Assembly (NCBI RefSeq): GCF_018336915.1
Contig: NZ_CP064923.1
Location: 2,370,001 to 2,402,000, forward strand
DNA: 32,000 nt
Source: Acaryochloris marina S15
Lineage (GTDB): Bacteria; Cyanobacteriota; Cyanobacteriia; Thermosynechococcales; Thermosynechococcaceae
Direction: 5' to 3'
The position numbers were made by a program, and so were the translations under genes. Shown one piece after another: positions 8,228 to 22,869 of the stretch. The notes under the pieces are model-generated. The model ran no database searches. It was given only the letters and a program-made list of their open reading frames with translations, and was not told the DNA's origin. Numbering within the stretch: the first letter of the stretch is position 1; each line of letters begins with the position of its first letter.

Positions 8228-9618
8228 ATGACCCTACCATCGCAATTGCTAACCGTGCTAGCCCATGACGAATTTCTAGAACAAACTGAAGCACTCAAAG
8301 TATCAACCAGCCTGAGTCAGATGGTTTATATCGTTCTGCAAATGGGCTTGTTTCTAGCTCGCTGTCTTCTGGAGGATGAACTCTCAAGGCGCGCGAAAGC
8401 AGTATTTGTATGGCCTGTATGTACTACCTGCGGAACCCGCTTACATTCGAAGGGATGGGAATCTCGTCAGATGCAGACACTGGTAGGCACTATCTCTTGA
8501 AAGCGACGGGTGGGCCGTTGTCCCAAAGGATGTCCAGGCAGTCTGTTGACTCCCCTGGATCAAGCCATTGGGATTGCCCCTATCAGCACAGCAGCGAAGA
8601 ACTGGTGCGTCTGGGCTGCTTGTTGAGTCTGTTCATGCCCTATGAACTGGCCAGTTGGATGCTGGGTCAGTGGAGTGGTCTATCCGTGAGTCCATCCAGT
8701 TTGTGGAACTGGGTGCAATCCGTGGGTAACAAAGCTCAGCAGGAATTAGAAGCTCAACTCAACGCTCAATCATCAGGGACTCAGGCCCCTTGTGAAGCGA
8801 TTTCAGAGATGTTATCTGCTCTACCTTTGGCCATTGCCGCCGATGGTGTGATGGTCCCCTTTCGCCCCACCCCGAACTCACCCAAGGGAAAAATCCAGTG
8901 GCGAGAAGTCAAAGTCGCCATCTTAGCTCGCCTGGGAACACGGGTTACCCGAGCTAAAAAGGAGGTCCCCCAATTACTGCGTCGAAGACTGGTGGCAGTA
9001 TTGGGCGATATCGACCAGTTCATCCCTTTACTTCAACTCGAAGCTCACAAACAAGACTTTGAATCTGCTCCAAAAGTCATCTGGCTCAGTGATGGGGGAC
9101 GAGGCTTCTGGCGAGTCTATCGCACCTTGTTCTCTCATTGTGCTGTGGCAGTCCTCGACTTTTTTCATTCAGCAGGCCATCTGGCACGAGCAACTAAAGC
9201 GATGTTTGGAGATGCCCGCTCTGCTCAAGCCCAAGCCTGGTTCCGGCACTGGCGACACCAATTGCGACACGGGCAACACCTACTTGTATTACGGTCCTTG
9301 ACGATATTGATTCACTCACAACTGTTAACGGGAAAGTCTTTTTCAACGTTGCTCCAGGTGCAGGCTTATTTCCAACGCCATCATAACCACATCCGTTATC
9401 GGCACTTTGAACAGCAACAGATTCCTCTCGGGTCAGGAATGGTTGAAAGTGCATGCAAGTGGTTGATTCAGCAGCGCTTTAAGGGAGTTGGCATGCGCTG
9501 GAGTGAGGATGGTTTCAACCATTTACTGATCTTGAGAATTGCCTGGGTCAATGAACGGTTTGACTCCTTATTCCCAGAGGTGACCATTCCGAAAACTAAG
9601 GCATCCCCGATCCGCTAA
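8228..9618 (+). pseudogene. ISKra4-like transposase with an in-frame TGA and a 1-nt frameshift
   Basis: Split into ORFs 8228..8500 and 8410..9618. Reading past TGA 8498-8500 in the first frame gives '..CTTCGTRLHSKGWESRQMQTLVGTIS*KRRVGRCPKGCPGSLLTPLDQAIGIAP'. This completes a CxxC...CxxxC zinc-ribbon. The frame must then shift by one nt in the C-run at 8577-8580 to continue 'YQHSSEELVRLGCLL...'. Confidence 0.8.
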
Positions 9619-9631: not shown

Positions 9632-10453
9632 TTGTTCTTGGCAATCAGTAGTTGGTATCTATTCCCTTTTGTTCTGTTAGAGAAAACATTAGCGGGGCCT
9701 CAGCTCTGGCTAGGCTCTGGATTGCTCACTATGGCTGGGCTAGTCGCGGCTGGCTTTTTCCTTGTAGACCCTAATCAAGCTCGGGTATTAATCTTGCTAG
9801 GAAAGTACATTGGCAGTATCCGAGAACCTGGTTTTTACTGGACCATTCCTTTTATCGTCAGTAAACGTCCAGTCTCCCTTCGCGTTCGCAACTTTAATAG
9901 TGAGAAACTGAAGGTCAATGATGCTCAGGGGAGTCCGATTGAAATTGCAGCAGTAGTCGTTTGGCGGGTGGTTAATTCTGCTAAGGCCACACTTGATGTC
10001 GAAAGCTGTCGTGATTTTGTCGCAATTCAGAGTGAGACGGCCCTGCGAAGTCTAGCCAGTCGTTATGCCTACGATATTTTCGATAACACCCACGAGTCTT
10101 TACGGGGCAACCCCGATCAAATTTCTGACTTGCTCAAACAAGAAGTTCAACGCCGTTTGGAGGTTGCGGGGGTTGATATTATCGAAGCCCGAATTACGCA
10201 CTTGGCCTATGCTCCAGAAATCGCTCAAGCGATGCTGCGTCGCCAACAAGCGATTGCAGTCATTGCTGCCAAAGAACGGATCGTCGAAGGTGCCTTGGGC
10301 ATGGTGGAAATGGCACTGCATCGACTGAGTGAGCAACAGGTGGTAGACCTGGATGAAGAACGGAAGGCTGCTATGGTAAACAACTTACTAGTTGCCCTAG
10401 TCTCTGAAAGTTCAACTCAGCCCATCATCAATGCTGGAACCCTGTATACGTGA
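9632..10453 (+). CDS. SPFH/band-7 (stomatin/prohibitin-like) domain protein, 5'-truncated by the IS
   Basis: SPFH core '[25 protein letters not shown]...[21 protein letters not shown]...' followed by a coiled C-terminal region. The only available start is TTG 9632, which lies inside the target-site duplication. The original start is at 8073. Confidence 0.8.
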
Positions 10454-10638
10454 GCAAAAAGAAGCGCTTCTTATTACGACTCGATCAGACTCTCTACGAC
10501 ACCCTGGAACGCTGGGCGGCGGATGAGTTGCGCAGCGTCAATGCTCAAATGGAATTTCTGCTTAAAGAGTCCGCTCGTAAAGCCGGGCGGAAGAAGGAGT
10601 TTCCCTCAGATCAGGATTCAGCTTCCGATTCATCCTGA
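10450..10638 (+). CDS. small ribbon-helix-helix (Arc/MetJ-like) protein
   Basis: '[39 protein letters not shown]' fits the beta-strand-helix-helix pattern of Arc-family proteins. The GTG start overlaps the SPFH stop (GTGA at 10450-10453). Acidic/Ser-rich tail. Confidence 0.65.
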
Positions 10639-10650
10639 TATTTTTACAGG

Positions 10651-10667
10651 CACCTTTTTATAAGGTG
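10651..10667. terminator. short hairpin between convergent genes (CACCTT-tttat-AAGGTG), candidate bidirectional terminator
   Basis: 6-bp stem with 5-nt loop, T-run on the plus side and A-run on the minus side. Sits in the 31-nt gap between the RHH stop (10638) and the DUF4280 stop (10670). Confidence 0.35.
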
Positions 10668-10669
10668 TT

Positions 10670-11062
10670 TCAAGGAATTTGGGTGGTCACTTGTCCGGGA
10701 TAAGTAATCTGGATAATACCGCCCCAGGTACAAAAGCATTTAGACGTGCTATTCAACGCTGGAAAATTATTGATCAATACGGTTGGTGAACCTGGTGCCC
10801 AAGGGGCAGGAATAACTGGAATACAGGGCATGGGGGTAAGGACTCCCAACGCTGCAGCCGTTGCCGAGGCTACGGTGGGATTCGCGAGAGAAGAACAAAC
10901 GCCAAAGGGTGGAATATTGGCGATGGGAGCATAGTCCATGATGGTGGCAGCTGCGGGACCTCCCGTCAGATCGGGGGGACCTTTAGGAATCACGATCAAG
11001 GAACTCGGTGCTGCACCAAATGAACATTGTAATGAAGCTCCCATGACGACCTGTTGAGCCAT
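10670..11062 (-). CDS. DUF4280-family PAAR-like spike-tip protein
   Basis: 'VVMGASLQCSFGAAPSSLIV...PFGVCSSLANPTVASATAAALGVLTPMPCIPVIPAPWAPGSPTVLINNFPALNSTSKCFCTWGGIIQI' is the characteristic DUF4280 signature. A perfect AAGGAGG Shine-Dalgarno (rc of 11071-11077) lies 8 nt upstream of the start. There is no C-terminal extension. Confidence 0.85.
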   Translation of the reverse strand: MAQQVVMGASLQCSFGAAPSSLIVIPKGPPDLTGGPAAATIMDYAPIANIPPFGVCSSLANPTVASATAAALGVLTPMPCIPVIPAPWAPGSPTVLINNFPALNSTSKCFCTWGGIIQITYPGQVTTQIP

Positions 11063-11084
11063 TGCCTACTCCTCCTTGTCACTA

Positions 11085-13043
11085 TCAATTGATCTTTACG
11101 ATTGAGCCTTTAATGCTATTTACCCCAGAGGCCTGAACAGTCACTAAGGCACCATCAATTTTAGTTTGGGCTGTCCCTTTCATAGCGGCCTGAACCCCTT
11201 GAATCGTGACGCCAGAATTGCTCAATTCAATGGATGAGCTACCCACCTTTAGCGTAATCTTGGTCGTTGCTGTTAGGGTAATTTCGCCAGCGTTCAGGCT
11301 AATTTTACGAGAACTACCGCTGGTTCCAGATTTAACATTGATATCTCCTGTCGAAATCATATCGATCTTGGCGGAGCCATTATCGTCTAGTAAGACTTTA
11401 TGTCCTCCCTTGGATTTTATTTCTAACTTTTTACCTTGATCATCCAACCGGGCATAATGTCCTTCTTTTGTTTTTAATTCGGTGAACTTTTCACTGTCAT
11501 TGAGATACAGATGGTGGCCATACACCGTATCTAAGTAAACTCCTTTTTTATTCGCATCTTTATCCTCTTCGACAAATTGGAGGGTATGGCCGGTGCGAGT
11601 TTTCACGGTTCGTAGATTGACCTTGCCGTCAACAATGGAACTATCCACCTTCTCTGGGGGACTATCTTTGCCATTCCACACCCCACCCATAATGTAGGGA
11701 CGGTGAATATCACCATGTTCAAACCCCACCAGCACCTCATCATCCACTTCGGGTAAACAGTCAAAACCGCGATTCTTGCCTGCGCCGCTGGCAACCATTC
11801 TGGCCCAGTTACTTTCATGTTCCTCTGTCAGGGTGGGAAATTTCACTCGGACTCGCCCCCACCCTTTAGGGTCTTTGTTATTGGTGACTTTACCGACCAA
11901 TAGGGTTTGCCCTGCCTGCAGCCGTTGAGCAGGGGCCAGCGTTGATAATAAATCTCCTCCCCGCAATCCCCGCACACTGAACTCAGTGGAATAAACCCGA
12001 TCTTGGAATAAATGGCGCGTTTCCGTGATGTAGTATTTACCGCTGTATTTCCCCATATCTTTGAGTTGGACGACTTGCCCCGTTCTCAAGTCGGGATTGC
12101 CTTCAGCCCTGGCATCCGCCACTACAAATTCACCTCCCAACTCATCAATTAAAGCCTGGGCAATGGTATCGGCTTCTTTGGCACTAAAGACTGGTTGATC
12201 CACCACAATCATTTTGGGAGTCGTGGGTTTGCCATTAAAGACGGTGCTTTGCTTCTGGCCGGAGCCATGATCTGTTGAGGTTAGCAATTTCTCGACATTT
12301 TTAGTGGAAACGATGGCTTCCTTCCGTTCATAATCCCAACCCCGCACTTCAACACTTTTCACTTGCTCTGCACTGGTCACCCGCACCCGAAAGCTATGTA
12401 GATCTTTGAGCCAGGTGAGGGAAATATTGGAGTTGGCCTTGGGCTTCCGAAAATTCATCTTGCCGTCTTGAACATAGAGTTCAAACCCATTTCGAGCCGC
12501 TCTCTCCCGCAAAAATTCCATATTGGTTTGGTTCTCTTGAAAAATATAGTCATGGGGAGAACCGCTGTTATCAATGCTGCCAACGGGAATTCCGACTTCT
12601 CCAATCACTTTTTTGACAACATCGGTGTCGGTCATATTTTGGAAGGAGCGATTGTAGCGACCTCGATGGAGTCGATGGGAGATATCGTAACCGCGAATCA
12701 CAATGGGGGCTTGGGAACTGGAGGTGAAATTCGTCTCCATGCCCGTGATTTCTCCATCCAGCACATAGCCTTGATTCTGATCATCAAAGTCCTGAGCTGC
12801 GGTGGTACTGCCGCTAAAGCCAATTTTGATGGTTTTACCGATCTGCAAGAGATCGTCATATTGCCAAGGGGCATCAACGGAGCGTCCAGAAAAGTAGTCA
12901 TTCTTGATTACCAGGACAAACATCCCAGGTAAGTGCAAGCTTTCTTCCACAGAAATCTGGAGGATATCTTCCATCAGCTCATTGGATGCTGTTTTACCAT
13001 CAATCTCTAGAAGTGGCTCGGCAATATAGGTGGTTGCAGGCAT
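11085..13043 (-). CDS. vgrG: VgrG-like spike/baseplate hub protein (gpD-like N-half, gp5 OB-fold, beta-helix)
   Basis: 652 aa. The N-terminal half resembles phage late control D. The OB-fold segment is 'WGRVRVKFPTLTEEHESNWARMVASGAGKNRGFDCLPEVDDEVLVGFEHGDIHRPYIMGGVWNG'. The C-terminal beta-helix repeats are 'GHKVLLDDNGSAKIDMISTGDINVKSG...ITLTATTKITLKVGSSSIELSNSGVTIQG'. No appended effector domain. Confidence 0.9.
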   Translation of the reverse strand: MPATTYIAEPLLEIDGKTASNELMEDILQISVEESLHLPGMFVLVIKNDYFSGRSVDAPWQYDDLLQIGKTIKIGFSGSTTAAQDFDDQNQGYVLDGEITGMETNFTSSSQAPIVIRGYDISHRLHRGRYNRSFQNMTDTDVVKKVIGEVGIPVGSIDNSGSPHDYIFQENQTNMEFLRERAARNGFELYVQDGKMNFRKPKANSNISLTWLKDLHSFRVRVTSAEQVKSVEVRGWDYERKEAIVSTKNVEKLLTSTDHGSGQKQSTVFNGKPTTPKMIVVDQPVFSAKEADTIAQALIDELGGEFVVADARAEGNPDLRTGQVVQLKDMGKYSGKYYITETRHLFQDRVYSTEFSVRGLRGGDLLSTLAPAQRLQAGQTLLVGKVTNNKDPKGWGRVRVKFPTLTEEHESNWARMVASGAGKNRGFDCLPEVDDEVLVGFEHGDIHRPYIMGGVWNGKDSPPEKVDSSIVDGKVNLRTVKTRTGHTLQFVEEDKDANKKGVYLDTVYGHHLYLNDSEKFTELKTKEGHYARLDDQGKKLEIKSKGGHKVLLDDNGSAKIDMISTGDINVKSGTSGSSRKISLNAGEITLTATTKITLKVGSSSIELSNSGVTIQGVQAAMKGTAQTKIDGALVTVQASGVNSIKGSIVKIN

Positions 13044-13078
13044 AGGTGTAAACAGTTGGAGAATTGAATTTCAGTACT

Positions 13079-13657
13079 TTAGCGACCAAAGGTTGTCCGG
13101 TTGGAGCGACTATCCTGGGAGCGATTGGGGGAGGCAGACTGACTCCCTCCTGCACCTAGGCTGGACTCATCTATTTCCTTCAAGGACATATCGACCCGGG
13201 CTTGGACCGGTGTTCCATCAGGCAAGAATAAGGTGAGTTTGTAAGTAATTTGTTCGACAAAACACCGCAGATATTGCTGGTCTCCCCAAGTGAAGATATA
13301 GATAGGCGGTCGTTTGTTGGCAGCGTCACCACTGTCATCAAAATCCAAGGCTTTAATCAGTTTGCTGACATAGGCATCGATCACGCTTGTACCTTGTTCG
13401 TAGGTATCAAACAATATATTGCTTAAGGACAAAGAGCAGGCTTCCGGGTAGGCAAAGGTGACTTTGGGTAATCCCTTAGCGGTTCGTGCCCCTTGGCTTT
13501 CATTCAGGCGCATTGACTGCTGAAAGACCAATTCAGTGGGGTTGAACATAAATTCAATATCTTTACTCTTGTCCGTGGGTTGGTGGACTAAGGTTGCCTT
13601 GGCTAACTTGCCAGAGGCAACGGCACTGTTATTGCTGCGAGAGCCACTATAGGTCAT
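13079..13657 (-). CDS. CIS tube-initiator-like protein (Afp7/gp53-type N-terminal tube-fold domain, no LysM)
   Basis: Pattern 'KATL....DKSKDIEFMFNPTEL........LNES....AKGLPKVTFAYPEACSLSLSNILFDTY...PPIYIFTWGDQQYLRCFVEQITYKLTLFLPDGTPVQARVDMSLKE' matches the conserved N-domain of LysM-type CIS tube/baseplate-hub proteins. It is followed by a Ser/Arg-rich tail instead of a LysM domain. Confidence 0.75.
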   Translation of the reverse strand: MTYSGSRSNNSAVASGKLAKATLVHQPTDKSKDIEFMFNPTELVFQQSMRLNESQGARTAKGLPKVTFAYPEACSLSLSNILFDTYEQGTSVIDAYVSKLIKALDFDDSGDAANKRPPIYIFTWGDQQYLRCFVEQITYKLTLFLPDGTPVQARVDMSLKEIDESSLGAGGSQSASPNRSQDSRSNRTTFGR

Positions 13658-13686
13658 GGGTATGGTTCAACCTCTTCATTTAATGT

Positions 13687-16600
13687 TCACCAAGGTAAGC
13701 GACCAGAATGATACCCTCCATGTCTCTCTCGCTCCACTTCCAGCCGCTGTCGGAGGATATGATAGATCTCCCTGGCTAAGATCTCGAAGCTTTGCTCATC
13801 TACTTTGGATGCGGTTGAAGTGTCGGTGTGGGATTGACGCATCACCACTTCTGTCGTTTGTAGAGGGGATGAGACTGGAGGAGGGGCAGCTAGAGCCTTT
13901 TGCAAGGTTTGAGCAGTCCGCCGGACAGATGCTGTTTTTCTTTGGACTCGCTTTTCTGGGTGAATTCCAGTGGGAGTGAGAACTAAATCTGAAGTGTCTT
14001 CAGGTACTGGGGTTTGTGGCTCTGCTTGGCGTTGGATGGCTGATGGCGATTGGACTGTGAATAGGTCTTCGATACTAGACCAGTTTGAGGGTAGTGCTGA
14101 GGGTTGGATTGTGGGTGCGATCGCATTCTCCGTATTCGCCTCAAAATCCTCCTCAGATAGCGCCGTGTCACCAGGGCTTAGATCTAATGGAATATTCGGG
14201 CGTTGCAAATGGCTGAGTTTTTGAGCACGATGCTGACGATTCGACTGGCTGGCAGGCCATAGGCTACTGATTAATTTCGGAGCAACAAAATTGTCGGCAA
14301 TGCTGGAAAGGGGAGAAGGCGCTTGGCCAGTCGCCAATAACTGGGCAACGGTTAGGTCTGGAGAATTCTCCTGTGGTAGTTCTAATTCAGGTGGTTGTGC
14401 TGCTATCTCAATGACTCGGCGTTGGCGCAAATCTGTAGAGTCAGGCTGAGCATTTATCTGATCTATCTTCAGCGCATCGAGAGTACCGCCTGATGGGTCT
14501 TGGTGCTGAATCGTAGGCTTAATGGGGGGCGATGATAATGGCTGGGTTGAAGCAAGTGAAGAGTCCGAACGATCTGCATCCGAAATCTGAATCTTTGAAT
14601 CAGGTGTTACTTGAGGCGGTTCTGCAACTTCAGATTTTTGTACAATGTTGGAGGAGATTTCTGTATGAGCAGGGTCAAACTCTGTTTCTACCTGAGAAGA
14701 GTGGCTCTCTGAATTCTTTTGAAGGATCTGATTCTCGTTGAGATCAGAGGATGGACTTGACGATATATCTTGACTGGGTAAATTAGCATTTTCGATGCTT
14801 CCATCAGGACGTTGAGCTGTAATTTCAATAACCCGACGGTGAAGAGACTCTACCTTGTCCGGTTGAGACTGGATGCTTTCTACTTTTTGAGGTGACGAAT
14901 CAGCAATATTTTCAGTTGGAAGTTGTTGTAAGTCTGGAGTTTTGGTGTCAGAAATACTCGGTTTGGCTAAGGGGGCCGGAGTAGCCTGATCCGAACGGGT
15001 TGTTGGGGTGGGTAGATCTGAACCTATCTTTGTCTTTGAAATTGTACTGGGCTGATGTGCAGACTGGATAATTTCTGATGCGTCTGAAATGTCAGTAAGA
15101 GCTGTATTAGAATCGTGAGACTGCTCAATGCTGGATGCTTGGATGGCAGGCTCTATAGTTGCTTCAGGCAAGTTATTGGGAGGTGATGTATCAACAGTTG
15201 GAGAGATGTGGCTATTTGGTGTAGCTTGCTGTTGTTCGGGCTGGTCTATTGACTGGGAAGGTTGGCTGTCTGGGGTTGGCTGGATTGAAAGAATATCTCT
15301 AGTATCTGGAGGTGATTCTTGGATGCGATCGCAATTATCATACGATTGCCCATTGCTTCCTTTCTGTAGCTGTGCTTCAACCGCGGGTTGGACAACAGAA
15401 ATCTCCACAGCCTGAATCGGAACGGTAGATGTTTGCTTTGATAACAACTTCGATATTTCTGTATTGGGTTCTGTTTGAGCAGAAGTCTTGTCTAGGACAG
15501 GAGTTTCCGGGGCTTTAGCCTGAGCATGTAACGGTTTGCTGGCATCACTGACATCCTTTCTTCGAGCAACTAATGGCTGATCACTATTTGATTGAGTCTC
15601 AATCTTTCGCTGAACGATGTTGCCCGTCTCAGCGATGCTAGCAGTATCACTGGTATTGCTTGGAGCTTGTGGCACATTATTTTCTTGAGATTCAAGAATC
15701 TTGGCATTCTGAGTGGCAGCAATAGCCGTATGGTCGGGCGCGTTTACCTTGAGGTCTGATTCAGATAAGCTTTGGTCTGATACTGTCTCTTTCGGTGGAT
15801 TTACGTTGGCTTGAATCGTTGGGGAAGCACTATTCGATACGTTGTCGTCTTGTTTCGGACTTTGAGATGTGTTGATATTAGTGCTATCCAGATTTTGACT
15901 AGTAGCTTCTGAGAGGTTAACTTCTATAACTACCTTTGGACTCTCTCTGTCGTCACTTTGCTTACTCTTCTTGGAAAGCTGAACCTGTTCTTCACTGAAT
16001 TCCTGGATAGATAAATCTGAGCCAGCGGGAAGCTGTTGTTGAGTTTGGCTAGTGATCGATGGCTGTTCAACCTTAGTTTGAACGGAGACTTCACTAATGG
16101 GAGGACGTTCTGGAGGATGCGATTCTGTTTCTAGAACATGTTGATCCAGAAAGTTTGGGGTTGGAGCGTTAGGTATATCGGGTTGAGATTGCTCCTGTAT
16201 AGTTTGTCGCTGGAGTAGGTTGTCTGGATCGCTGGTATTTGATACTTCTGAGTTTTCATCAGAGTCTGTGGACTCCTGTAACGATAGTTCAGCTTGAGAA
16301 AGTGAATGTGAACTTGGGGGGATAGCAGCTTTGGATTGTTTTATTCGATCATCAGCATTGTCGAGTTGTGATGATTGCTGATGAGTGACGTCCTGACGTT
16401 GAATAGAGTTATTAGTACTTGGAATTGAGGTCGCTTGATTGATCGCCTCACTTTGAGTAATGGAATTCTTCTGAGGGGAAAGTTGAATGGAATCTGAGGT
16501 GGGCAGAGAAGACAGCTCTGTTCGGTGCTGAAGGTTCGGTTCGCTAAAGGAGCTAGAACTTTCAGAATCCAAGGGCTTAGAGTTTATTTCCTCAGCTGGG

Positions 16601-19600
16601 ATAGGCTGCTTTTGAATAATTTCTGCTGTGGATGAGTGTCGTTTAATTGAGCTATCAGCTAAGGGAGAAGGAACCTCAGAGGGCTGTATGGAAGAGTGGG
16701 GTGTGTTTCTTGAAGGCTGGTCAGAGACTATTGGAGCGCGGGTCGAAGCTGCCTCGCTCCCATCGCCCGTGTCATGCTGCCTTTGGACCACTGCTGTATG
16801 TCCAGTGGTCGGTGATGATTGTGTGGGTACGTTTGGTCGTTCTAAAGGGTTGGACTGATGTGTCGATGGCGATGTTTCCTCTTGTTCAGTCAGTAAAGTT
16901 GGTCTGAGAGTTGTATCAGCTCCTGTATTCTCACTAGAAATTTTTGCGGGAGACGACGCTAGGTTCTGCTTGTTTGTCTGGCGTTTTGACTTTGTCTTTT
17001 TAGGCCTTAAGTTTGCCAACTGCTGGACAATGGTTGTACCTATTTTTGAGATATGGGAATTGAGGGAGAGATTGCGACTTTGAGATGATTTTGGTGTTGA
17101 GCCACGGTTTTCTGAACCTCGACTCGATACATCGGTTATTGGCTGTTCTGAGCTTGTTGAGGTTATCTCAGAGCTATCTGGAGTCCTTTGTATAGAGTCC
17201 TCATTGCCTGATGGCAAAGCTGGCTCATTTTGTCCTGAATCTTTTGGTGGCTGAGGAGTCTTTGCTTTATCAACAGAGCTAGCTTGAATAATTGGCTCAG
17301 TTGTGGATTCTGGTGGATTATTAGTGTCTTTTGCTGGGGAAGGAGGGATGGCGGGATTTACATCCGTTTGAACAAGACTTTCTGTTGCCGGGTTAGATGT
17401 AGAGGTTAGCTGTACCGAATCAGTCAATAATGGTTGTTCATTGCCATACACTTTGTCTGAACTAGGCTCAGCAGAGGCCTGAATATTATCTCTATTAAGC
17501 TCAGGAACATCTGCAGATTGTAGGGAGATGTTTTTCTGTGCAACTTCGGATGAGGTCGCTGGTTCAACTGAGCCAGCTTCCTGACATTGTATGGATTGAG
17601 GTAATTGCCTCCTCGAACTTTGTTTTCGGATCGACCGATCAACCCTCTCTTTAATTTCTGAACCTAGATTTGTGATTCTATCTGCGAATTGATTTTGAGT
17701 GGTTTGCCATCCAGGCTGGGCAGCATTGGGTTGTGCTTCTCCTTGGGCAACAAGTGCTGGGTTATGCCCTTCCCGTGGGGAAGATTCCTCAATACTATTT
17801 GGGGTAGGGAAGTCTACTTGCTCAGAAGGAAGAGGGGTCGGTATTGAGGATTGTGATGCTTCAGCTTTTTGTACCGTTGGTAATTCTTGGGTTTGGAGAT
17901 TTTCATCAGCAGTGACATCGGTGAGTCGACCTGACTGATTCTTGGGATGCTCTTGTTCGTTTGAACTAAGTTTAGATTTTGAATGAATAGCTGTATCTGG
18001 AACTGTATTGGGTGAAAATGGCTTAGCCTGAATGTCTGATTGAATAGATGTTACAGCGTTTTTATCTACAGCTTTACCACCACTACCTTGCGATGGCGAT
18101 GTATCTTCACCTACCGATTTTTGAGGCGAGACAGGGTTGATGGTCTGGTCTTTACGATTCTGCTCTGAGTTTTTGGATAAAAACTGCTGCTGTCTTTGGA
18201 GCGGATTGGACTCTTCATTTGGCTGAGGTTCAAGTTGGCGACTAACCGTATCCATGACCTGTTGACTGAAACGCGTCAGTCGTTGCAGGGGTTGAACTGG
18301 GAAGGGTCCCCGCGTCTTTGCTTTTGACCGAGACGAACTAGACTCAGCATTAGAAGTAACATCTGATGATGAGGTAGGTTTTTGCTGATCGGCACTCCCC
18401 TCGGGTGTGGATGATTCAGATTTAATTTGATCCGGTCTAGATGCCTTGGAGTCTGAGGTGGACTCAGTCCCCTCATTAGGACCAGCGATTGAATTAGGAT
18501 GTTTGTCTTGATGAATCGTTGGCTCAGACATTCCAAGAGACTTCGTTTGTAGTGGAGTGGAAGGCGAATGTTCTTGGGGTAAGTCTATAGACTCAGGAAT
18601 TGCTTGAACAGTTGGAGAATTCTCTTCATAGTCAGCATTCTCAGTGTTCACTGACAGCAGTTTTTCTTGGGACAGTTCTTGAGAAGGAGCTTTCTCTACA
18701 GCCTTTGTTCCTGTTTGGACTAGAGATACTTCAGAGGATGATTGTTTTGAGTCAGGGGACGATTTGGCTTGAAGCAATGGAGCGTTTGACAGTGGAGGTG
18801 AATCATTCGTGGATTTCTGTACCTCATTGGCCTTAGCTCTAGATTTACCAACAGGGAGTGATTGAGATGCCTGCTTAAGCTGAATACCAACTTTATTAAT
18901 ATCCTGTTGGGCTCGTTTCCCCATTCGCGAGAGCTGAGCTTGTAAGGGAAGCTTTTTCTGTTTGCTTTTTTTACTTTGTTTCGTTTGTTTTTTTTCAGGT
19001 GCTTTAGTAGATGCCTGAGGAGTTAAATCGTCTGCTCGTTGAATAGCTGTTGACTGTACCGCTTCCCCATCAATTTTTTCTGAAGTGCTGGGTATAGAAG
19101 GACTCTCAACGGATGGGAGGTTGTTACTAGGATTAATGCGGTTAGTCTCTACCTTTGGTATCTGTGGGTGATCCGTAGAAGACTGCTGAACAGCCGAACT
19201 TTCTGAGTTTTGAATAGTTGTTGTCTCTGTGGAGCTATCAGAAGTCTTGGCCGTTGAACTGGGTGGCTCGGAATTCTTAAGCAGTAAAGACTCATCATCT
19301 GGAGATTGTTGAGGAGATGCTGGGGTGACTGTTTGAACAATTGTTGTCTTGATGGGGGTTTCGTTAGTCTTGGGCTTAGGGCTAGGTGTTACAGGAGTTT
19401 CAATTGATGAACCACGATCAATTGAGTGACTTGGGTTAGCTTCTACTTTTGAGTTAGCGAGGGAAGCCTGTGAACGGCTAGTTTGCAGTTCATTTGGAGA
19501 AATAGGAGATGACTGTATAGTCCGCTTAGCAGGTAGATCTGTGGTGATGTCAGTCGCTTGTTCAGTGGGTGGAGTGGTTAGCTCGATGTCTTGAGCAGTC

Positions 19601-20952
19601 GCCTCAAGTGAAGTTTGGATTGGAACGGGTTGGGACTCGGGAGGTTGAACGTTAGATACTGGTTTTTCCTGAACAGGTTTAGAAGAAATAACTGGTTTTT
19701 GACTAGACAGTGGAGATGCTTTTGGGGCAGCTTCTTCTTTACTTTGGACAACCTGGGTGTTTTGAGTAGATAGAGCTAATGAATGGTCAGGGGCAGAAGA
19801 GACTTTTGGGAGGTTTGGTTGAATGGGGGTAGAGACTTCTGATGCTTCAGTTGGAGATGAATCAGAATTTGTAGAATTGGCAAGAGGTGAAGGGTCTAGG
19901 CTAGAAGATGTTACGTCTGAGTCTAGAGGAGTGGCCTGTTCTTGAGACTTAGGGAGACTCTCTTGGATTGCGGAGGGCTCGGAATTTGCCTTGATTTCTG
20001 GTAAATCCTGGCGTTTAGTCTGAAGGGGCGGCACATCTGTTGGGTGGGAAGAAGCACTCACCTCAGGAGATATCGCTTTGGATGAGGGATGTGCGATTGG
20101 TTTCTGGGGCGTTTGTTCAGGCTGGGGGTTGAACTCAGTACTGGGTTTGCCGGCAACCCCCTCTGATGATGTCTGAAGTCCCGGTGTGTTGTCTATTGGG
20201 GAGGAAGCAGGGGAATGTGCTGACTCTTGAGCATGGGATTCATGGGATGGCGGGCTAAGTTTAGAAGTCCTGACCAGCTTAGGTTGAAGTATTGTGTCAG
20301 GACTGCTTTGATCTTGAGCAATCTGTTTTTCTGATTCAACCTGCTCAGAATGAGGGACTAAAGACTGGGTAGAGATCTGATACTGCACAGGCTGAATAGA
20401 AGGGGCTGCAGCTTGGGTCGGGGCAGCATTAAGGACTGCATTAGTCTCACTGGATGACGATGGTTCTACTTCTGGTGCATTGCGATGGATCTTGTTAGCA
20501 TTGCTGGGTGCTGTTGGCGGCTCCTGATGGGTTGATAATTGCTCTAATTTAGGTTGCAGATTCTCGGCAGGTGCTTTCGGAGCAAGAGTGCTAGGTTGCG
20601 CTCCAGGAAACTGGGTTACGACGGATTGAGAGATGTTGGAAGCCATTGACGACAGCTCGTCAATGGCTTCCGTTGGCACCTGGGCAGCAAAATGGGTATT
20701 TAGAAGATTTGTCCGAGCTGTTTCGGTAGGCAGGGTGGCATCCAAGCTTATTAGGGATACAGTGCCCAAGGGAGATAGGGTATGGGGTTGGAGAAAGGAT
20801 TGTCCTAGAACAGGAGGAGGTAGCAGTGGATGTTGCAGGCCGAGCGAGTCTGAGGAAGGAATCTCTTCCGGCTGGGATTGATGACCTTGACCTGAATTGA
20901 CATCCATAAACAAACGTTTTGGGTTAGTTACTGGGGTAGAATCCTCCGGCAT
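13687..20952 (-). CDS. giant (2421 aa) low-complexity Ser/Pro/Gln/Thr/Glu-rich protein with a short ordered C-terminal motif; tape-measure-position protein of unknown function
   Basis: An uninterrupted 7.27-kb ORF cannot arise by chance. It is packed between the tube and tube-initiator genes. It is almost devoid of aromatic and Cys residues and has no recognisable enzymatic motif (no HExxH). The C-terminus is 'ILAREIYHILRQRLEVERERHGGYHSGRLPW'. An alternative start, ATG 20907, would remove the 29-nt overlap with the tube gene. Confidence 0.9.
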   Translation of the reverse strand: MPEDSTPVTNPKRLFMDVNSGQGHQSQPEEIPSSDSLGLQHPLLPPPVLGQSFLQPHTLSPLGTVSLISLDATLPTETARTNLLNTHFAAQVPTEAIDELSSMASNISQSVVTQFPGAQPSTLAPKAPAENLQPKLEQLSTHQEPPTAPSNANKIHRNAPEVEPSSSSETNAVLNAAPTQAAAPSIQPVQYQISTQSLVPHSEQVESEKQIAQDQSSPDTILQPKLVRTSKLSPPSHESHAQESAHSPASSPIDNTPGLQTSSEGVAGKPSTEFNPQPEQTPQKPIAHPSSKAISPEVSASSHPTDVPPLQTKRQDLPEIKANSEPSAIQESLPKSQEQATPLDSDVTSSSLDPSPLANSTNSDSSPTEASEVSTPIQPNLPKVSSAPDHSLALSTQNTQVVQSKEEAAPKASPLSSQKPVISSKPVQEKPVSNVQPPESQPVPIQTSLEATAQDIELTTPPTEQATDITTDLPAKRTIQSSPISPNELQTSRSQASLANSKVEANPSHSIDRGSSIETPVTPSPKPKTNETPIKTTIVQTVTPASPQQSPDDESLLLKNSEPPSSTAKTSDSSTETTTIQNSESSAVQQSSTDHPQIPKVETNRINPSNNLPSVESPSIPSTSEKIDGEAVQSTAIQRADDLTPQASTKAPEKKQTKQSKKSKQKKLPLQAQLSRMGKRAQQDINKVGIQLKQASQSLPVGKSRAKANEVQKSTNDSPPLSNAPLLQAKSSPDSKQSSSEVSLVQTGTKAVEKAPSQELSQEKLLSVNTENADYEENSPTVQAIPESIDLPQEHSPSTPLQTKSLGMSEPTIHQDKHPNSIAGPNEGTESTSDSKASRPDQIKSESSTPEGSADQQKPTSSSDVTSNAESSSSRSKAKTRGPFPVQPLQRLTRFSQQVMDTVSRQLEPQPNEESNPLQRQQQFLSKNSEQNRKDQTINPVSPQKSVGEDTSPSQGSGGKAVDKNAVTSIQSDIQAKPFSPNTVPDTAIHSKSKLSSNEQEHPKNQSGRLTDVTADENLQTQELPTVQKAEASQSSIPTPLPSEQVDFPTPNSIEESSPREGHNPALVAQGEAQPNAAQPGWQTTQNQFADRITNLGSEIKERVDRSIRKQSSRRQLPQSIQCQEAGSVEPATSSEVAQKNISLQSADVPELNRDNIQASAEPSSDKVYGNEQPLLTDSVQLTSTSNPATESLVQTDVNPAIPPSPAKDTNNPPESTTEPIIQASSVDKAKTPQPPKDSGQNEPALPSGNEDSIQRTPDSSEITSTSSEQPITDVSSRGSENRGSTPKSSQSRNLSLNSHISKIGTTIVQQLANLRPKKTKSKRQTNKQNLASSPAKISSENTGADTTLRPTLLTEQEETSPSTHQSNPLERPNVPTQSSPTTGHTAVVQRQHDTGDGSEAASTRAPIVSDQPSRNTPHSSIQPSEVPSPLADSSIKRHSSTAEIIQKQPIPAEEINSKPLDSESSSSFSEPNLQHRTELSSLPTSDSIQLSPQKNSITQSEAINQATSIPSTNNSIQRQDVTHQQSSQLDNADDRIKQSKAAIPPSSHSLSQAELSLQESTDSDENSEVSNTSDPDNLLQRQTIQEQSQPDIPNAPTPNFLDQHVLETESHPPERPPISEVSVQTKVEQPSITSQTQQQLPAGSDLSIQEFSEEQVQLSKKSKQSDDRESPKVVIEVNLSEATSQNLDSTNINTSQSPKQDDNVSNSASPTIQANVNPPKETVSDQSLSESDLKVNAPDHTAIAATQNAKILESQENNVPQAPSNTSDTASIAETGNIVQRKIETQSNSDQPLVARRKDVSDASKPLHAQAKAPETPVLDKTSAQTEPNTEISKLLSKQTSTVPIQAVEISVVQPAVEAQLQKGSNGQSYDNCDRIQESPPDTRDILSIQPTPDSQPSQSIDQPEQQQATPNSHISPTVDTSPPNNLPEATIEPAIQASSIEQSHDSNTALTDISDASEIIQSAHQPSTISKTKIGSDLPTPTTRSDQATPAPLAKPSISDTKTPDLQQLPTENIADSSPQKVESIQSQPDKVESLHRRVIEITAQRPDGSIENANLPSQDISSSPSSDLNENQILQKNSESHSSQVETEFDPAHTEISSNIVQKSEVAEPPQVTPDSKIQISDADRSDSSLASTQPLSSPPIKPTIQHQDPSGGTLDALKIDQINAQPDSTDLRQRRVIEIAAQPPELELPQENSPDLTVAQLLATGQAPSPLSSIADNFVAPKLISSLWPASQSNRQHRAQKLSHLQRPNIPLDLSPGDTALSEEDFEANTENAIAPTIQPSALPSNWSSIEDLFTVQSPSAIQRQAEPQTPVPEDTSDLVLTPTGIHPEKRVQRKTASVRRTAQTLQKALAAPPPVSSPLQTTEVVMRQSHTDTSTASKVDEQSFEILAREIYHILRQRLEVERERHGGYHSGRLPW

Positions 20953-21496
20953 CTCTACCTTTCAAGAAGGTAGCCCCACCGCCTGCGTTACTGCTGGGCT
21001 GCAGGTTGGCAACGACCTTTAGACCTTCGTATGCCAAGGTGAGTTCTTCAATGGCAACGGTAGATGTATCCGCTTGGAGAGCTGGAGCTTGCCAAGCCAC
21101 GGGGACGGCACCAATTAAGGTCCAGGTTTGAATGGTTTCTCCTGCTTGATTGAACAAGAGGATATTGATGTTGCGACGCTGGGGATTCACATTACGATCG
21201 GTCGGTTCTAACTGGGTGAGCATACGACTGGCCCAGCCCCAAAACACTAGATCATTCGTAATCCCTCGCTTGAGGGTGACATCAGAGAATTCAGTTTGAC
21301 CGAGTATGATTCGCTGCTGGTTGTTGACGCCGCCTTCAAAGTAGGTGTCATGCTTGATTTTGGCGCTTAACCCTGAACATTCGCTAAAGCAAGCACTGAT
21401 ATAGCTCTTTTCTTGGATTTCGACATAGAAGCGATTGGCAGTGACGTAGTTAAGGTTATGGGTTTCGCTGTTGCTAGCCACTAGTGCCGCCCCCAT
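20924..21496 (-). CDS. phage-tail/eCIS inner tube protein (T4 gp19-like, Afp1/Afp5-type)
   Basis: 'NRFYVEI....ISACFSECSGLSAKIKHDTYFEGGVNNQQRIILGQTEFSDVTLKRGITNDLVFWGW......RRNINILLFNQAGETIQTWTLIGAVPVAWQAPALQADTSTVAIEELTLAYEGL' matches the conserved phage-tail-region tube family. It carries an extra ~28-aa Gly-rich C-terminal extension. Confidence 0.88.
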   Translation of the reverse strand: MGAALVASNSETHNLNYVTANRFYVEIQEKSYISACFSECSGLSAKIKHDTYFEGGVNNQQRIILGQTEFSDVTLKRGITNDLVFWGWASRMLTQLEPTDRNVNPQRRNINILLFNQAGETIQTWTLIGAVPVAWQAPALQADTSTVAIEELTLAYEGLKVVANLQPSSNAGGGATFLKGRDAGGFYPSN

Positions 21497-21707
21497 AGTT
21501 CCGCTCGCGCTGATTTTGCAGGTCGTTTTGCATCAGTTCATAGATGCGATCGCATAATCGAGATTGCGCCAGTGGATCTTGCAAAATCTGGGCTGCTAAT
21601 CTGAAAACCCTGTCTCGATCAGATAGATCAGACAGTCCAGGCGAGCACCCCGCTGAAGCTGAATGGATTCTCTGGTTTTCTCCTAGAGACTGATCCCCTT
21701 GGCTCAT
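21474..21707 (-). CDS. small hypothetical protein (77 aa from ATG 21707; 102 aa if GTG 21782), first gene of the tail-like operon
   Basis: Its 3' end overlaps the tube gene start by 23 nt. Its C-terminus 'LCDRIYELMQNDLQNQRERNYGGGTSG' parallels the giant protein's C-terminus. Contains a HIP1 site. The start codon is uncertain. Confidence 0.55.
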   Translation of the reverse strand: MSQGDQSLGENQRIHSASAGCSPGLSDLSDRDRVFRLAAQILQDPLAQSRLCDRIYELMQNDLQNQRERNYGGGTSG

Positions 21708-22587
21708 ATGGCAAGTACCTAGTAACAACTCTCCCCGCCTGCCCCACCCCGCTTCAGATAAGGGATGAGGGACCAGCCTCACTCTATGGGCCAGAAAGAG
21801 CGACCGATAGTAGCCAAAGGTCTAACTGCACCAAGCATATGGTTCTACATAGGCGCAAGCCTTCCATGAACAAAAGCTGTGATGGGTAAAAAGGTCTATT
21901 AGAGAATGGTCCTCTTCTCCACTTTGAGTAGAGGCTAAATGAAGCCGTGAACTTTTCTAAGATTTTCCATCAGTTTTATCTTGCTTCATCATTTGATTAA
22001 CAAAAGCGAAGATTTTAGTAAATATACTCAGGAATCCATAGGGTATGAAGAAACTAAATCTCAGATGAAGCTTTACCTATCGCACCTAAATGGATAGGCA
22101 AAAGTAGAAAAATTTGCTGACTGCATTCACTTTTTTTCAACCGTAAGGAGGGTCTGATATCAGCTGAGACCTCTAAAAGTGGCTTAACTTAATAATTTTT
22201 TACAGGATTAAATTTCTTCTGACAAATAAAACTTACTGGGCATCAATAATCGAGAATCGTTTTCATGTTGATGTCTTAAAAGTATGCCCAGAAAGCTTTT
22301 TGAGCTATTTGACTGTCCGTAACTTTTGCCGAAATACTCCAAACTTTTCTATCCATAAACTCGTAATTACCAAAAAAAACCTGAAATCCAGAGATTATCA
22401 AGGTTCTGACGATCTATATTTAGCGAATAGCATTTAGAATAATCCATTAAATCGACGTGGTTGCGACATTTCAGCCAGTTAGACTGTAGTTACACTCCAG
22501 ATAGAACATCAGATTTATCTGTATTTTTCTGGAACTACAGACTCGATTTTTTTGCTCACGCTTAACTGAACAAATAGGAGTCAATCA

Positions 22588-22869
22588 ATGAATAAAGGAG
22601 AACTCGTCGACGCCGTTGCTGATAAGGCAAGTGTCACGAAAAAGCAGGCAGATGCAGTTCTGACTGCCGCCCTAGAGGCCATTGTTGAATCTGTCTCGTC
22701 AGGAGAAAAAGTCACATTGGTGGGATTTGGCTCATTTGAACCTCGCGAACGCAAGGCCCGGGAAGGACGTAACCCCAAAACCGGTGCGAAAATGAAGATT
22801 CCCGCAACTAAAGTTCCAGCTTTCTCTGCAGGTAAGCTGTTTAAGGAAAAAGTTGCTCCTAAAAAGTAA
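22588..22869 (+). CDS. hup: DNA-binding protein HU
   Basis: Classic HU sequence 'MNKGELVDAVA...VTLVGFGSFEPRERKAREGRNPKTGAKMKIPATKVPAFSAGKLFKEKV', with an AGGAG Shine-Dalgarno upstream. Confidence 0.97.
   Translation: MNKGELVDAVADKASVTKKQADAVLTAALEAIVESVSSGEKVTLVGFGSFEPRERKAREGRNPKTGAKMKIPATKVPAFSAGKLFKEKVAPKK

Follow-up and report, generated by a model that had tools for sequence, protein, structure and literature searches.

A block of six genes on the chromosome of Acaryochloris marina S15, lying within the 32,000-nucleotide stretch analysed here (contig NZ_CP064923.1, positions 2,370,001–2,402,000; hereafter the window), raises the question of what a set of phage-tail-like tube and spike genes does without a sheath gene beside it. 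An earlier reading made from the letters of this DNA (the sequence-only reading) had offered three answers: the inner half of a split contractile injection system (CIS) locus, a remnant, or a sheath-independent tube-plus-spike device of undescribed architecture. The present analysis bears out the first: the six genes very probably form the sub-operon for the central hub ('inner baseplate') of a conventional A. marina CIS, the genes of which are distributed over at least three chromosomal loci.

The six open reading frames (ORFs) follow one another on the minus strand at 10670–21782, as an ORF check on the window letters showed, in the order and with the junctions first described; computed from the coordinates, the junctions are -23, -29 (+16 if counted from Met16), +29, +35 and +22 nt. 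Each gene has an ortholog in strain MBIC11017 (AM1_5907 to AM1_5912, locus tags cross-checked against protein accessions). A small ORF (21474–21782, 102 aa from GTG; AM1_5907) is followed by a gene of the gp19 family (20924–21496, 190 aa; AM1_5908), the product of which matches PF06841 (Phage_T4_gp19, E 2e-36), by the gene of a giant protein (13687–20952, 2421 aa; AM1_5909) and by a Cis7/Afp7-like tube initiator gene (13079–13657, 192 aa; AM1_5910). The Cis7-like protein matches PF19266 (CIS_tube, E 1e-18) and contains no LysM domain; its PDB matches are the 'tube initiator' 8kea_P, Afp7 and the AlgoCIS LysM-domain chain 7aeb_M, judged to be Alg7 from that domain and the AlgoCIS paper. The fifth gene (11085–13043, 652 aa; AM1_5911) encodes a VgrG/Cis8 spike protein (WP_212665740.1/QUY44649.1) with a gp27-like hub domain (PF05954, Phage_GPD), a gp5 OB fold (PF04717, Phage_base_V) and a beta-helix, which passes the NCBIfam model NF033848 (VgrG_rel; 363 bits, cut-off 275) and has hundreds of relatives ('VgrG-related proteins') at 60–68% identity in many cyanobacterial genera. 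The last gene (10670–11062, 130 aa; AM1_5912) occupies the Cis10 position and encodes a DUF4280 PAAR-like spike tip, which matches PF14107 over its full length (E 7e-36), is 57–79% identical to the product of the gene 3' of VgrG in 18 other loci and had no sequence match in the PDB. The matches to PF19266, PF05954, PF04717 and PF14107 are all above the Pfam cut-offs, and four of the five domain guesses of the sequence-only reading (gp19, CIS_tube, VgrG and DUF4280) lie above curated thresholds.

The reported lack of sheath, wedge, cap and ATPase genes also held: no sheath, gp25, baseplate-J, Pvc16 cap or AAA+ gene was detected in the 32-kb window by Pfam searches of every large ORF or by tblastn with cyanobacterial CIS proteins. 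However, a sheath protein (QUY40554.1; PF04984, PF17482) is encoded on the same 5,881,945-bp A. marina chromosome as the window VgrG (QUY44649.1). It belongs to the sheath cluster P0466 ('phage tail sheath'), and cluster P0458 contains ABW25357.1, which is AM1_0271 of MBIC11017. The gene order of this sheath locus was read from Logan contigs with the exact QUY40554.1 protein. The minus strand carries genes for an eCIS_core/DUF4157 effector, an AAA+ protein (664 aa), proteins of 76 and 82 aa, a Pvc16_N cap (436 aa), a LuxR response regulator and a histidine kinase; the plus strand carries genes for a Pvc16_N protein (186 aa), the sheath (566 aa), three tube paralogs (tube166, tube160 and tube164), two chaperone-like proteins of 139 and 110 aa and a kinase/PBP protein (729 aa), beyond which unrelated genes begin. 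Searches with tblastn found no small ORF, giant, Cis7, VgrG, DUF4280, gp25 or Cis11 gene in the sheath locus and none of the sheath-locus genes in the window; nor do the 10 kb to either side of the sheath locus contain a hub. The two loci hold non-overlapping, complementary gene sets; a complete canonical CIS locus elsewhere that lacks exactly these genes is what the sequence-only reading had named as the mark of an ordinary split locus. Recovery of the A. marina sheath depended on the query: an L002-type sheath recovered it, and with an L037-type sheath no Acaryochloris was among the matches listed, the ten large clusters checked being of other taxa. A plasmid-borne sheath was considered and discarded, as tblastn of a cyanobacterial sheath against PLSDB gave no Acaryochloris among the top matches or leading genera listed. 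The LuxR-type response regulator and histidine kinase genes (L092 6771–8641) separate the cap operon from the sheath operon.

The gp19-family gene of the window had been taken for a tube gene, and here the family assignment stood and the role as main tube did not. Its product scores 74 bits with the NCBIfam model CIS5_fam versus 28 bits with CIS1_fam (both under cut-off), and its top PDB match is Afp5. Each of the four A. marina gp19 paralogs has its own counterpart among the four of a contiguous Leptolyngbyaceae cluster, at 87%, 82%, 66% and 57–59% identity, the fourth being the window gene, which is at most 25–26% identical to the three tube paralogs of the sheath locus. Since CIS5_fam and Afp5 are the best matches and the pairing is with the fourth paralog, the block carries the adaptor ring and not the tube subunit: by these comparisons the window protein is a Cis5/Afp5-type inner-tube adaptor, forming the second ring on the hub. 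No main-tube (Cis1-type) gene is present among the six.

The synteny comparison proposed earlier was carried out with 80 related loci from species-representative genomes, annotated by BLAST against a reference set from the contiguous Leptolyngbyaceae cluster. Their canonical order begins with the sheath, three gp19 paralogs, one or two chaperone-like genes of ~140 aa and the kinase/PBP-like gene, and continues with the small ORF, the fourth (Cis5-like) gp19, the giant, Cis7 (CIS_tube), VgrG, PAAR/DUF4280, gp25 and Cis11, a baseplate-J-like protein of ~735 aa, with a Pvc16_N cap and an AAA+ ATPase nearby. The six genes of the window thus correspond to an uninterrupted inner stretch of an ordinary CIS cluster, and the window and the sheath locus together reproduce the contiguous cluster gene for gene and in the same order. 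Among the 33 loci that were informative on both sides of the block, five are fully contiguous and another three have gp25 a few kb off, 16 are broken only before the small ORF and four only after the spike tip, four contain isolated blocks like that of the window, and one is rearranged. Both boundaries of the hub block are recurrent rearrangement points. Transposase genes adjoin these boundaries in the window (ISKra4), in Altericista (L086 13044–14021) and in one Leptolyngbyaceae strain (L002 648–1688).

A third locus and a functional link between the pieces emerge from a 2024 transcriptome of A. marina grown under low-light far-red (PMC11633204). In that study AM1_0269–0278, which include the sheath gene AM1_0271, were induced, as were AM1_5907, 5908, 5909 and 5911 of the hub block (AM1_5907 among the top far-red-induced genes) and AM1_6402–6406, of which AM1_6406 is annotated GPW/gp25 (K06903). 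The MBIC11017 list holds the full set from all three loci, and the top-35 table and differential-expression list of strain MU13 hold orthologs of AM1_0269–0274, 0278, 5907, VgrG, 6403 and 6406; the paper gives these genes in its tables without discussing them (PMC11633204). The co-induction of three loci argues that the pieces work together. On this published evidence the third locus comprises AM1_6406 (gp25) and the adjacent co-induced hypothetical genes AM1_6402–6405; in the orthologous cyanobacterial clusters, gp25 and Cis11 lie directly 3' of the spike tip. The LuxR regulator AM1_0267 was also induced in far-red/low light (PMC11633204) and, since it lies inside the sheath locus and is itself induced, is a candidate master regulator of the three loci. 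Also among the strongest far-red-induced genes of both A. marina strains is a 'phage tail collar' run with its neighbours (AM1_3684–AM1_3690; PMC11633204), which could encode tail fibres of the A. marina CIS at a fourth locus.

By analogy with Afp, PVC, AlgoCIS and the Streptomyces CIS, a VgrG trimer capped by the DUF4280 protein would nucleate the Cis7 and Cis5 rings, the hexamers of which would bridge the change from three-fold to six-fold symmetry and start the tube. Wedges encoded at the third locus would then assemble around the hub, and the Cis1-type tube and the sheath from the second locus would polymerise on it until capped; sheath contraction would expel the spike, the tube and DUF4157 cargo. 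Several points weigh against this reconstruction. Assembly from three loci is inferred, no Acaryochloris particle having been seen, and the context of the sheath locus comes from Logan contigs of Acaryochloris strains with an identical sheath protein and not from the assembly record of the window. The third (wedge) locus derives from a published annotation (GPW/gp25, K06903) and co-expression. The roles proposed below for the giant protein and the small ORF lack a structural or sequence homolog in Pfam, NCBIfam, PHROG and the PDB, and the 163–3123 aa size range of the giant is awkward for a simple ruler.

Of the other explanations, a decaying, non-functional remnant of a once-contiguous CIS cluster fits the position of the locus apart from its partners and the frameshifted ISKra4 transposase gene 1 kb past its 3' end, and in the Leptolyngbyaceae locus L002 the giant and DUF4280 genes are indeed truncated beside a transposase. 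However, all six ORFs are intact in A. marina, as are the complementary loci; VgrG, the gp19-family protein and the giant are conserved across Acaryochloris, with 90%-identity clusters that span six named Acaryochloris genomes for the former two and two for the giant, plus many sequencing runs; and in two strains the genes are expressed under joint regulation with the sheath and gp25 loci. Since the genes are intact, conserved and expressed, decay is improbable. A second alternative is an orphan spare spike cassette, which would give an alternative tip or cargo to a CIS with its own hub. Auxiliary vgrG-PAAR islands are common in type VI secretion systems (T6SS) and offer a precedent, and some cyanobacteria do contain two different CIS sets (Leptothoe spongobia, L009 and L019; Nostoc minutum, P0095 and L077). 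In A. marina, however, a single VgrG cluster was found among the VgrG matches and a single Vgr gene in the expression tables, the sheath locus has no other hub within the 10 kb on either side, and no effector gene is linked to the block, which together make a spare cassette very improbable. That the block is a self-sufficient, sheath-independent device built around a giant disordered protein, as its compactness, its own upstream non-coding region, its housekeeping flanks on both sides in A. marina and the recurrence of the isolated arrangement in at least four other species might suggest, is scarcely credible, because the sheath, main tube, cap and ATPase genes stand on the same chromosome in a locus without exactly these six genes, the loci are co-induced, the sole gp19-type gene of the block is a Cis5-type adaptor with no main tube subunit beside it, and orthologous blocks are embedded in complete clusters elsewhere. 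Such a device would have been a new class of phage-tail-derived machine, and the claim is retired.

As a split CIS, the A. marina locus belongs to a known kind, since split loci were catalogued in 2019: 13 genomes with extracellular CISs (eCISs) across two disparate locations, in both lineages (Chen et al. 2019, PMC6899500). Like other split systems (e.g., T6SS-iv of Amoebophilus asiaticus), A. marina appears to have the full CIS gene set at separate genomic locations. Unlike the catalogued split eCISs, it has three locations instead of two; its cuts fall at boundaries that are recurrent in cyanobacteria (5' of the small ORF and 3' of the spike tip), and its co-regulation by light quality is documented. 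A literature search combining 'Acaryochloris' and 'contractile injection' returned no paper, and A. marina is not described there as a CIS carrier. For this chlorophyll-d model cyanobacterium, a three-part CIS co-induced by far-red/low light has not been discussed as such before. More generally, in a widespread cyanobacterial CIS clade the hub module behaves as a unit that parts from the rest of the cluster at recurrent break points, and genome-mining pipelines that require contiguous clusters will miss or mis-score split CISs.

The closest solved relative of the A. marina spike is that of the cytoplasmic Streptomyces coelicolor system CIS-Sc (PDB 9gtp/9gtr; E 1.5e-48 with 9gtr; PMC10066040; PMC12237407). 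The two systems appear to share a core of sheath, several tube paralogs, Cis7, VgrG, gp25, baseplate J, DUF4255/Pvc16 cap, AAA+ and DUF4157 proteins. They differ in that the Streptomyces clusters examined are contiguous, unlike those of A. marina, that the Streptomyces Cis7 has a LysM domain whereas the window Cis7 does not, and that the giant gene stands before the Cis5-like gene in Streptomyces and after it in cyanobacteria. The thylakoid-anchored CIS (tCIS) of Anabaena has Cis1, 2, 5, 6, 7, 8 and 10, with Cis5 and Cis7 forming the first two tube layers on the spike and Cis6 plugging the spike cavity; its hallmarks are the Cis19 crown and the Cis13 transmembrane domain (PMC8894136; PDB 7b5h). 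It is encoded by one contiguous operon (all3313–all3327), unlike the split A. marina genes. Membership of the tCIS clade was ruled out by spike similarity, the window VgrG scoring 110 bits (E 1.2e-30) with Anabaena All3320 and lying closer to the Streptomyces spike; judged by sequence, the A. marina system is in a different cyanobacterial clade from the published tCIS. Assignment to the T6SS was likewise rejected. VgrG is under the cut-offs of TIGR03361 and TIGR01646, the weak resemblance of the DUF4280 protein to IglG (50 bits) is under the cut-off of 200, and the partner locus encodes a sheath of phage type (PF04984) with a Pvc16 cap instead of TssB/C.

The most unusual member of the block is the giant protein, which contains 16% Ser, 11% Pro, 10% Gln and 8% Thr and almost no aromatic residues, a composition that suggests intrinsic disorder. 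Across loci its ends are conserved and its middle is hypervariable. Near the N-terminus (aa ~33–70, encoded at 20743–20856 on the minus strand) lies a threefold PLG motif, SDSLGLQHPLLPPPVLGQSFLQPHTLSPLGTVSL, that also occurs at the N-termini of giants in many cyanobacterial loci (e.g., L004, L010, L020, L043 and L047). The C-terminal motif, FEILAREIYHILRQRLEVERERHGGYHSGRLPW (13690–13800, minus strand), has a consensus of ~35–40 aa, LExLAxEIYxLLRQRLEIERERxGxxYSGRLPW, that suggests an amphipathic helix followed by a short tail. This motif is kept in about 60 loci whatever the length of the protein, and a search of a library of 1.84 billion representative proteins found it in 266 representatives of 50%-identity clusters (53–2880 aa), nearly always at the extreme C-terminus. 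At the position of the giant in the loci, protein length ranges from 163 to 3123 aa, the 3123-aa ORF running off the end of its locus, and the family as a whole spans 53 to 3123 aa among the proteins seen. The giant is 271 aa long in Laspinema (L014), about 1200 aa in Nostoc, Stenomitos and Streptomyces, and 2300–3100 aa in A. marina, a Leptolyngbya PCC 7375-like strain and Aliinostoc. The gene is always beside the Cis5 adaptor gene. No family match was found for the giant in Pfam, PHROG or NCBIfam, and its C-terminus had no solved homolog in the PDB, the chains of 7b5h included, either as a single-sequence query or as a 32-sequence profile. Some members, encoded just before the CIS_tube gene in loci L037, L039, L045 and L055, carry the C-terminal ...ERERxG motif twice in tandem; several matches from the representative library likewise show two matched stretches.

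A short repeat, [ILV]QR, occurs 11 times in the window giant versus 1.2 times in shuffled sequences, 31 times in L003 (2294–9235) and 68–99 times in Pseudanabaena giants; the giants that carry it include those at L026 1889–9358, L029 821–9451, L089 16784–20491 and L091 16786–20931. It is strongly enriched in members from A. marina, Leptolyngbyaceae, Pseudanabaena, Arthrospira and Streptomyces. Its use as a universal mark of the family was discarded: being absent from the giants of Nostocales and Deinococcus, it is not a defining feature. Most copies have S, T or P before them and x-S-D/E after them. In the DUF4157 effector of the A. marina sheath locus, a similar motif, IQRK/IQGK, is found on the N-terminal side of the eCIS_core domain.

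Counterparts of the giant were also found outside cyanobacteria. At the corresponding position, a plasmid of Streptomyces sp. NBC_01426 encodes a Pro/Ala-rich ORF of 1235 aa with nine [ILV]QR copies (~0.5 expected; L089 16784–20491), and a plasmid of S. clavuligerus a Pro/Ala-rich ORF of 1381 aa with 20 copies (L091 16786–20931). Both end in ...DRERxGRL; their individual matches to the C-terminal profile are weak (E 0.05 and 1.8), but both are placed at the very C-terminal end of the syntenic ORF. On a Deinococcus taeanensis plasmid (L090), a small ORF (E 1e-4 with the small-ORF profile) and a Cis5-like gene precede a 1506-aa ORF (17306–21826), the last residues of which match the giant C-terminal profile (E 0.002). 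The two Streptomyces records annotate only the last 255 and 71 residues of these ORFs, while the Deinococcus record lists nothing of this stretch but a 252-aa 'DUF4157 domain-containing protein' at its 3' end. The annotation of short C-terminal fragments is probably why the giant family has gone unnoticed.

With regard to function, two structural papers report that Streptomyces CISs have a uniform length of about 230–270 nm and no tape-measure gene, and Afp14 is absent from lineage II (Chen et al., PMC6899500). The giant gene, between cis5 and cis7, occupies the afp6 position or the one next to it; phage clusters have their tape-measure gene here, and Afp-type clusters have the gene of the Alg6 plug next to it. 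In the spike cavity, Alg6 forms a trimeric helix that faces the lumen and is essential for assembly (AlgoCIS paper). As in the tape measures Afp14 and gp29, the termini of the giant are conserved and its middle is variable. In contrast to these and to Afp6, Alg6 and Cis6, it has no detected sequence or profile similarity to any of them, appears by composition disordered and not coiled-coil, is 40 times the size of Alg6 and has its conserved element at the C-terminus as a helix followed by a tail, whereas Alg6 consists of a strand and then a helix. Since no tape measure is reported in the lineage and the gene stands in the tape-measure/plug position, the giant is proposed, as a hypothesis, to act as a hub-anchored lumen thread: its C-terminal motif may be anchored in the hub/spike cavity with the small paralog beside it, and its disordered body may run up the tube lumen in the manner of a tape measure or a plug. 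Put more broadly and only tentatively, as something possible rather than probable, the giants may be an unrecognised, apparently disordered family that supplies the length ruler or lumen thread reported absent from Streptomyces-type CISs, with [ILV]QR as lumen- or cargo-docking sites. The giant is in this respect a concrete candidate for the open question of how Streptomyces-type CISs attain a uniform length without a tape-measure gene.

The small ORF at the head of the block is related to the giant. A gene caller applied to an identical Logan contig starts it at ATG, and a 77-aa product from the ATG at 21707 is more likely than the 102-aa product from GTG. Its conserved C-terminal ~45 aa, LAAQILQDPLAQSRLCDRIYELMQNDLQNQRERNYGG, are paralogous to the motif that ends the giant (hhalign with the profile of that motif: probability 94.9%, E 4e-8), and in 28 other loci a homologous small ORF immediately precedes the Cis5-like gene. 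No family match was found in Pfam, PHROG or NCBIfam, and the small-ORF profile yielded only chance coiled-coil and RGS matches in the PDB, with the chains of 7b5h unmatched.

The flanks of the operon are as first described, with an 805-bp ORF-free, non-coding region (21783–22587, minus strand) on its 5' side, beyond which hup (PF00216) lies on the plus strand, and a convergent RHH-like (ribbon-helix-helix) ORF (10450–10638) and an SPFH gene (9632–10453) downstream. The 805-bp region presumably holds the promoter of the operon and regulatory sites. The hairpin reported between the converging genes is present (6 bp, 10651–10667) but fails a terminator scan, and scans of 10300–22700 for consensus promoters and terminators gave as many matches as expected from shuffled sequence. 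The region upstream of the hub and the intergenic region of the sheath locus have in common one 12-mer (AGATAAAACTGA, in opposite orientation) and a few 9–11-mers in AT-rich DNA; as a common regulatory motif these were judged indistinguishable from chance, and the comparison gave no convincing shared motif.

The kinase-like/PBP_like_2 protein (729–750 aa) is a conserved cluster member between the chaperone-like genes and the small ORF (L092 14311–16500, L004 78–2330, L087 13724–15139), with a weak Pkinase match in a 472-aa partial copy; its gene is with the sheath locus in A. marina and with the hub block in a Nostocales locus. The baseplate operon of the Deinococcus cluster includes an FHA-Ser/Thr kinase gene (L090 4433–9274). 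The Leptolyngbyaceae genomes of L002 and L003 have a common VgrG protein (P0046). In L002, the giant (1575 aa called) and DUF4280 (49 aa) genes are truncated with a transposase nearby, and the truncated tip gene is immediately followed by the baseplate, ATPase, cap and sheath region, an arrangement that suggests a recent rearrangement or a partial duplication inside the cluster.

In the window, the ISKra4-family transposase gene (8228–9618, plus strand; NF033572, 210 bits) is frameshifted into an N-terminal piece (8228–8500) and a main ORF (8410–9618), and only the SPFH and RHH-like genes intervene between it and the 3' end of the operon, 1 kb away. The other sizeable ORFs of the window are housekeeping or unrelated genes, encoding PNPase, QueG, a pentapeptide protein, the ISKra4 transposase, SPFH, HU and an aminotransferase, along with an oxidoreductase, GST, EamA, MarR and a PAS histidine kinase. 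A Phage_holin_4_2 family gene (26607–26966, plus strand; E 4e-29) lies among housekeeping genes, 4.8 kb upstream of the operon.

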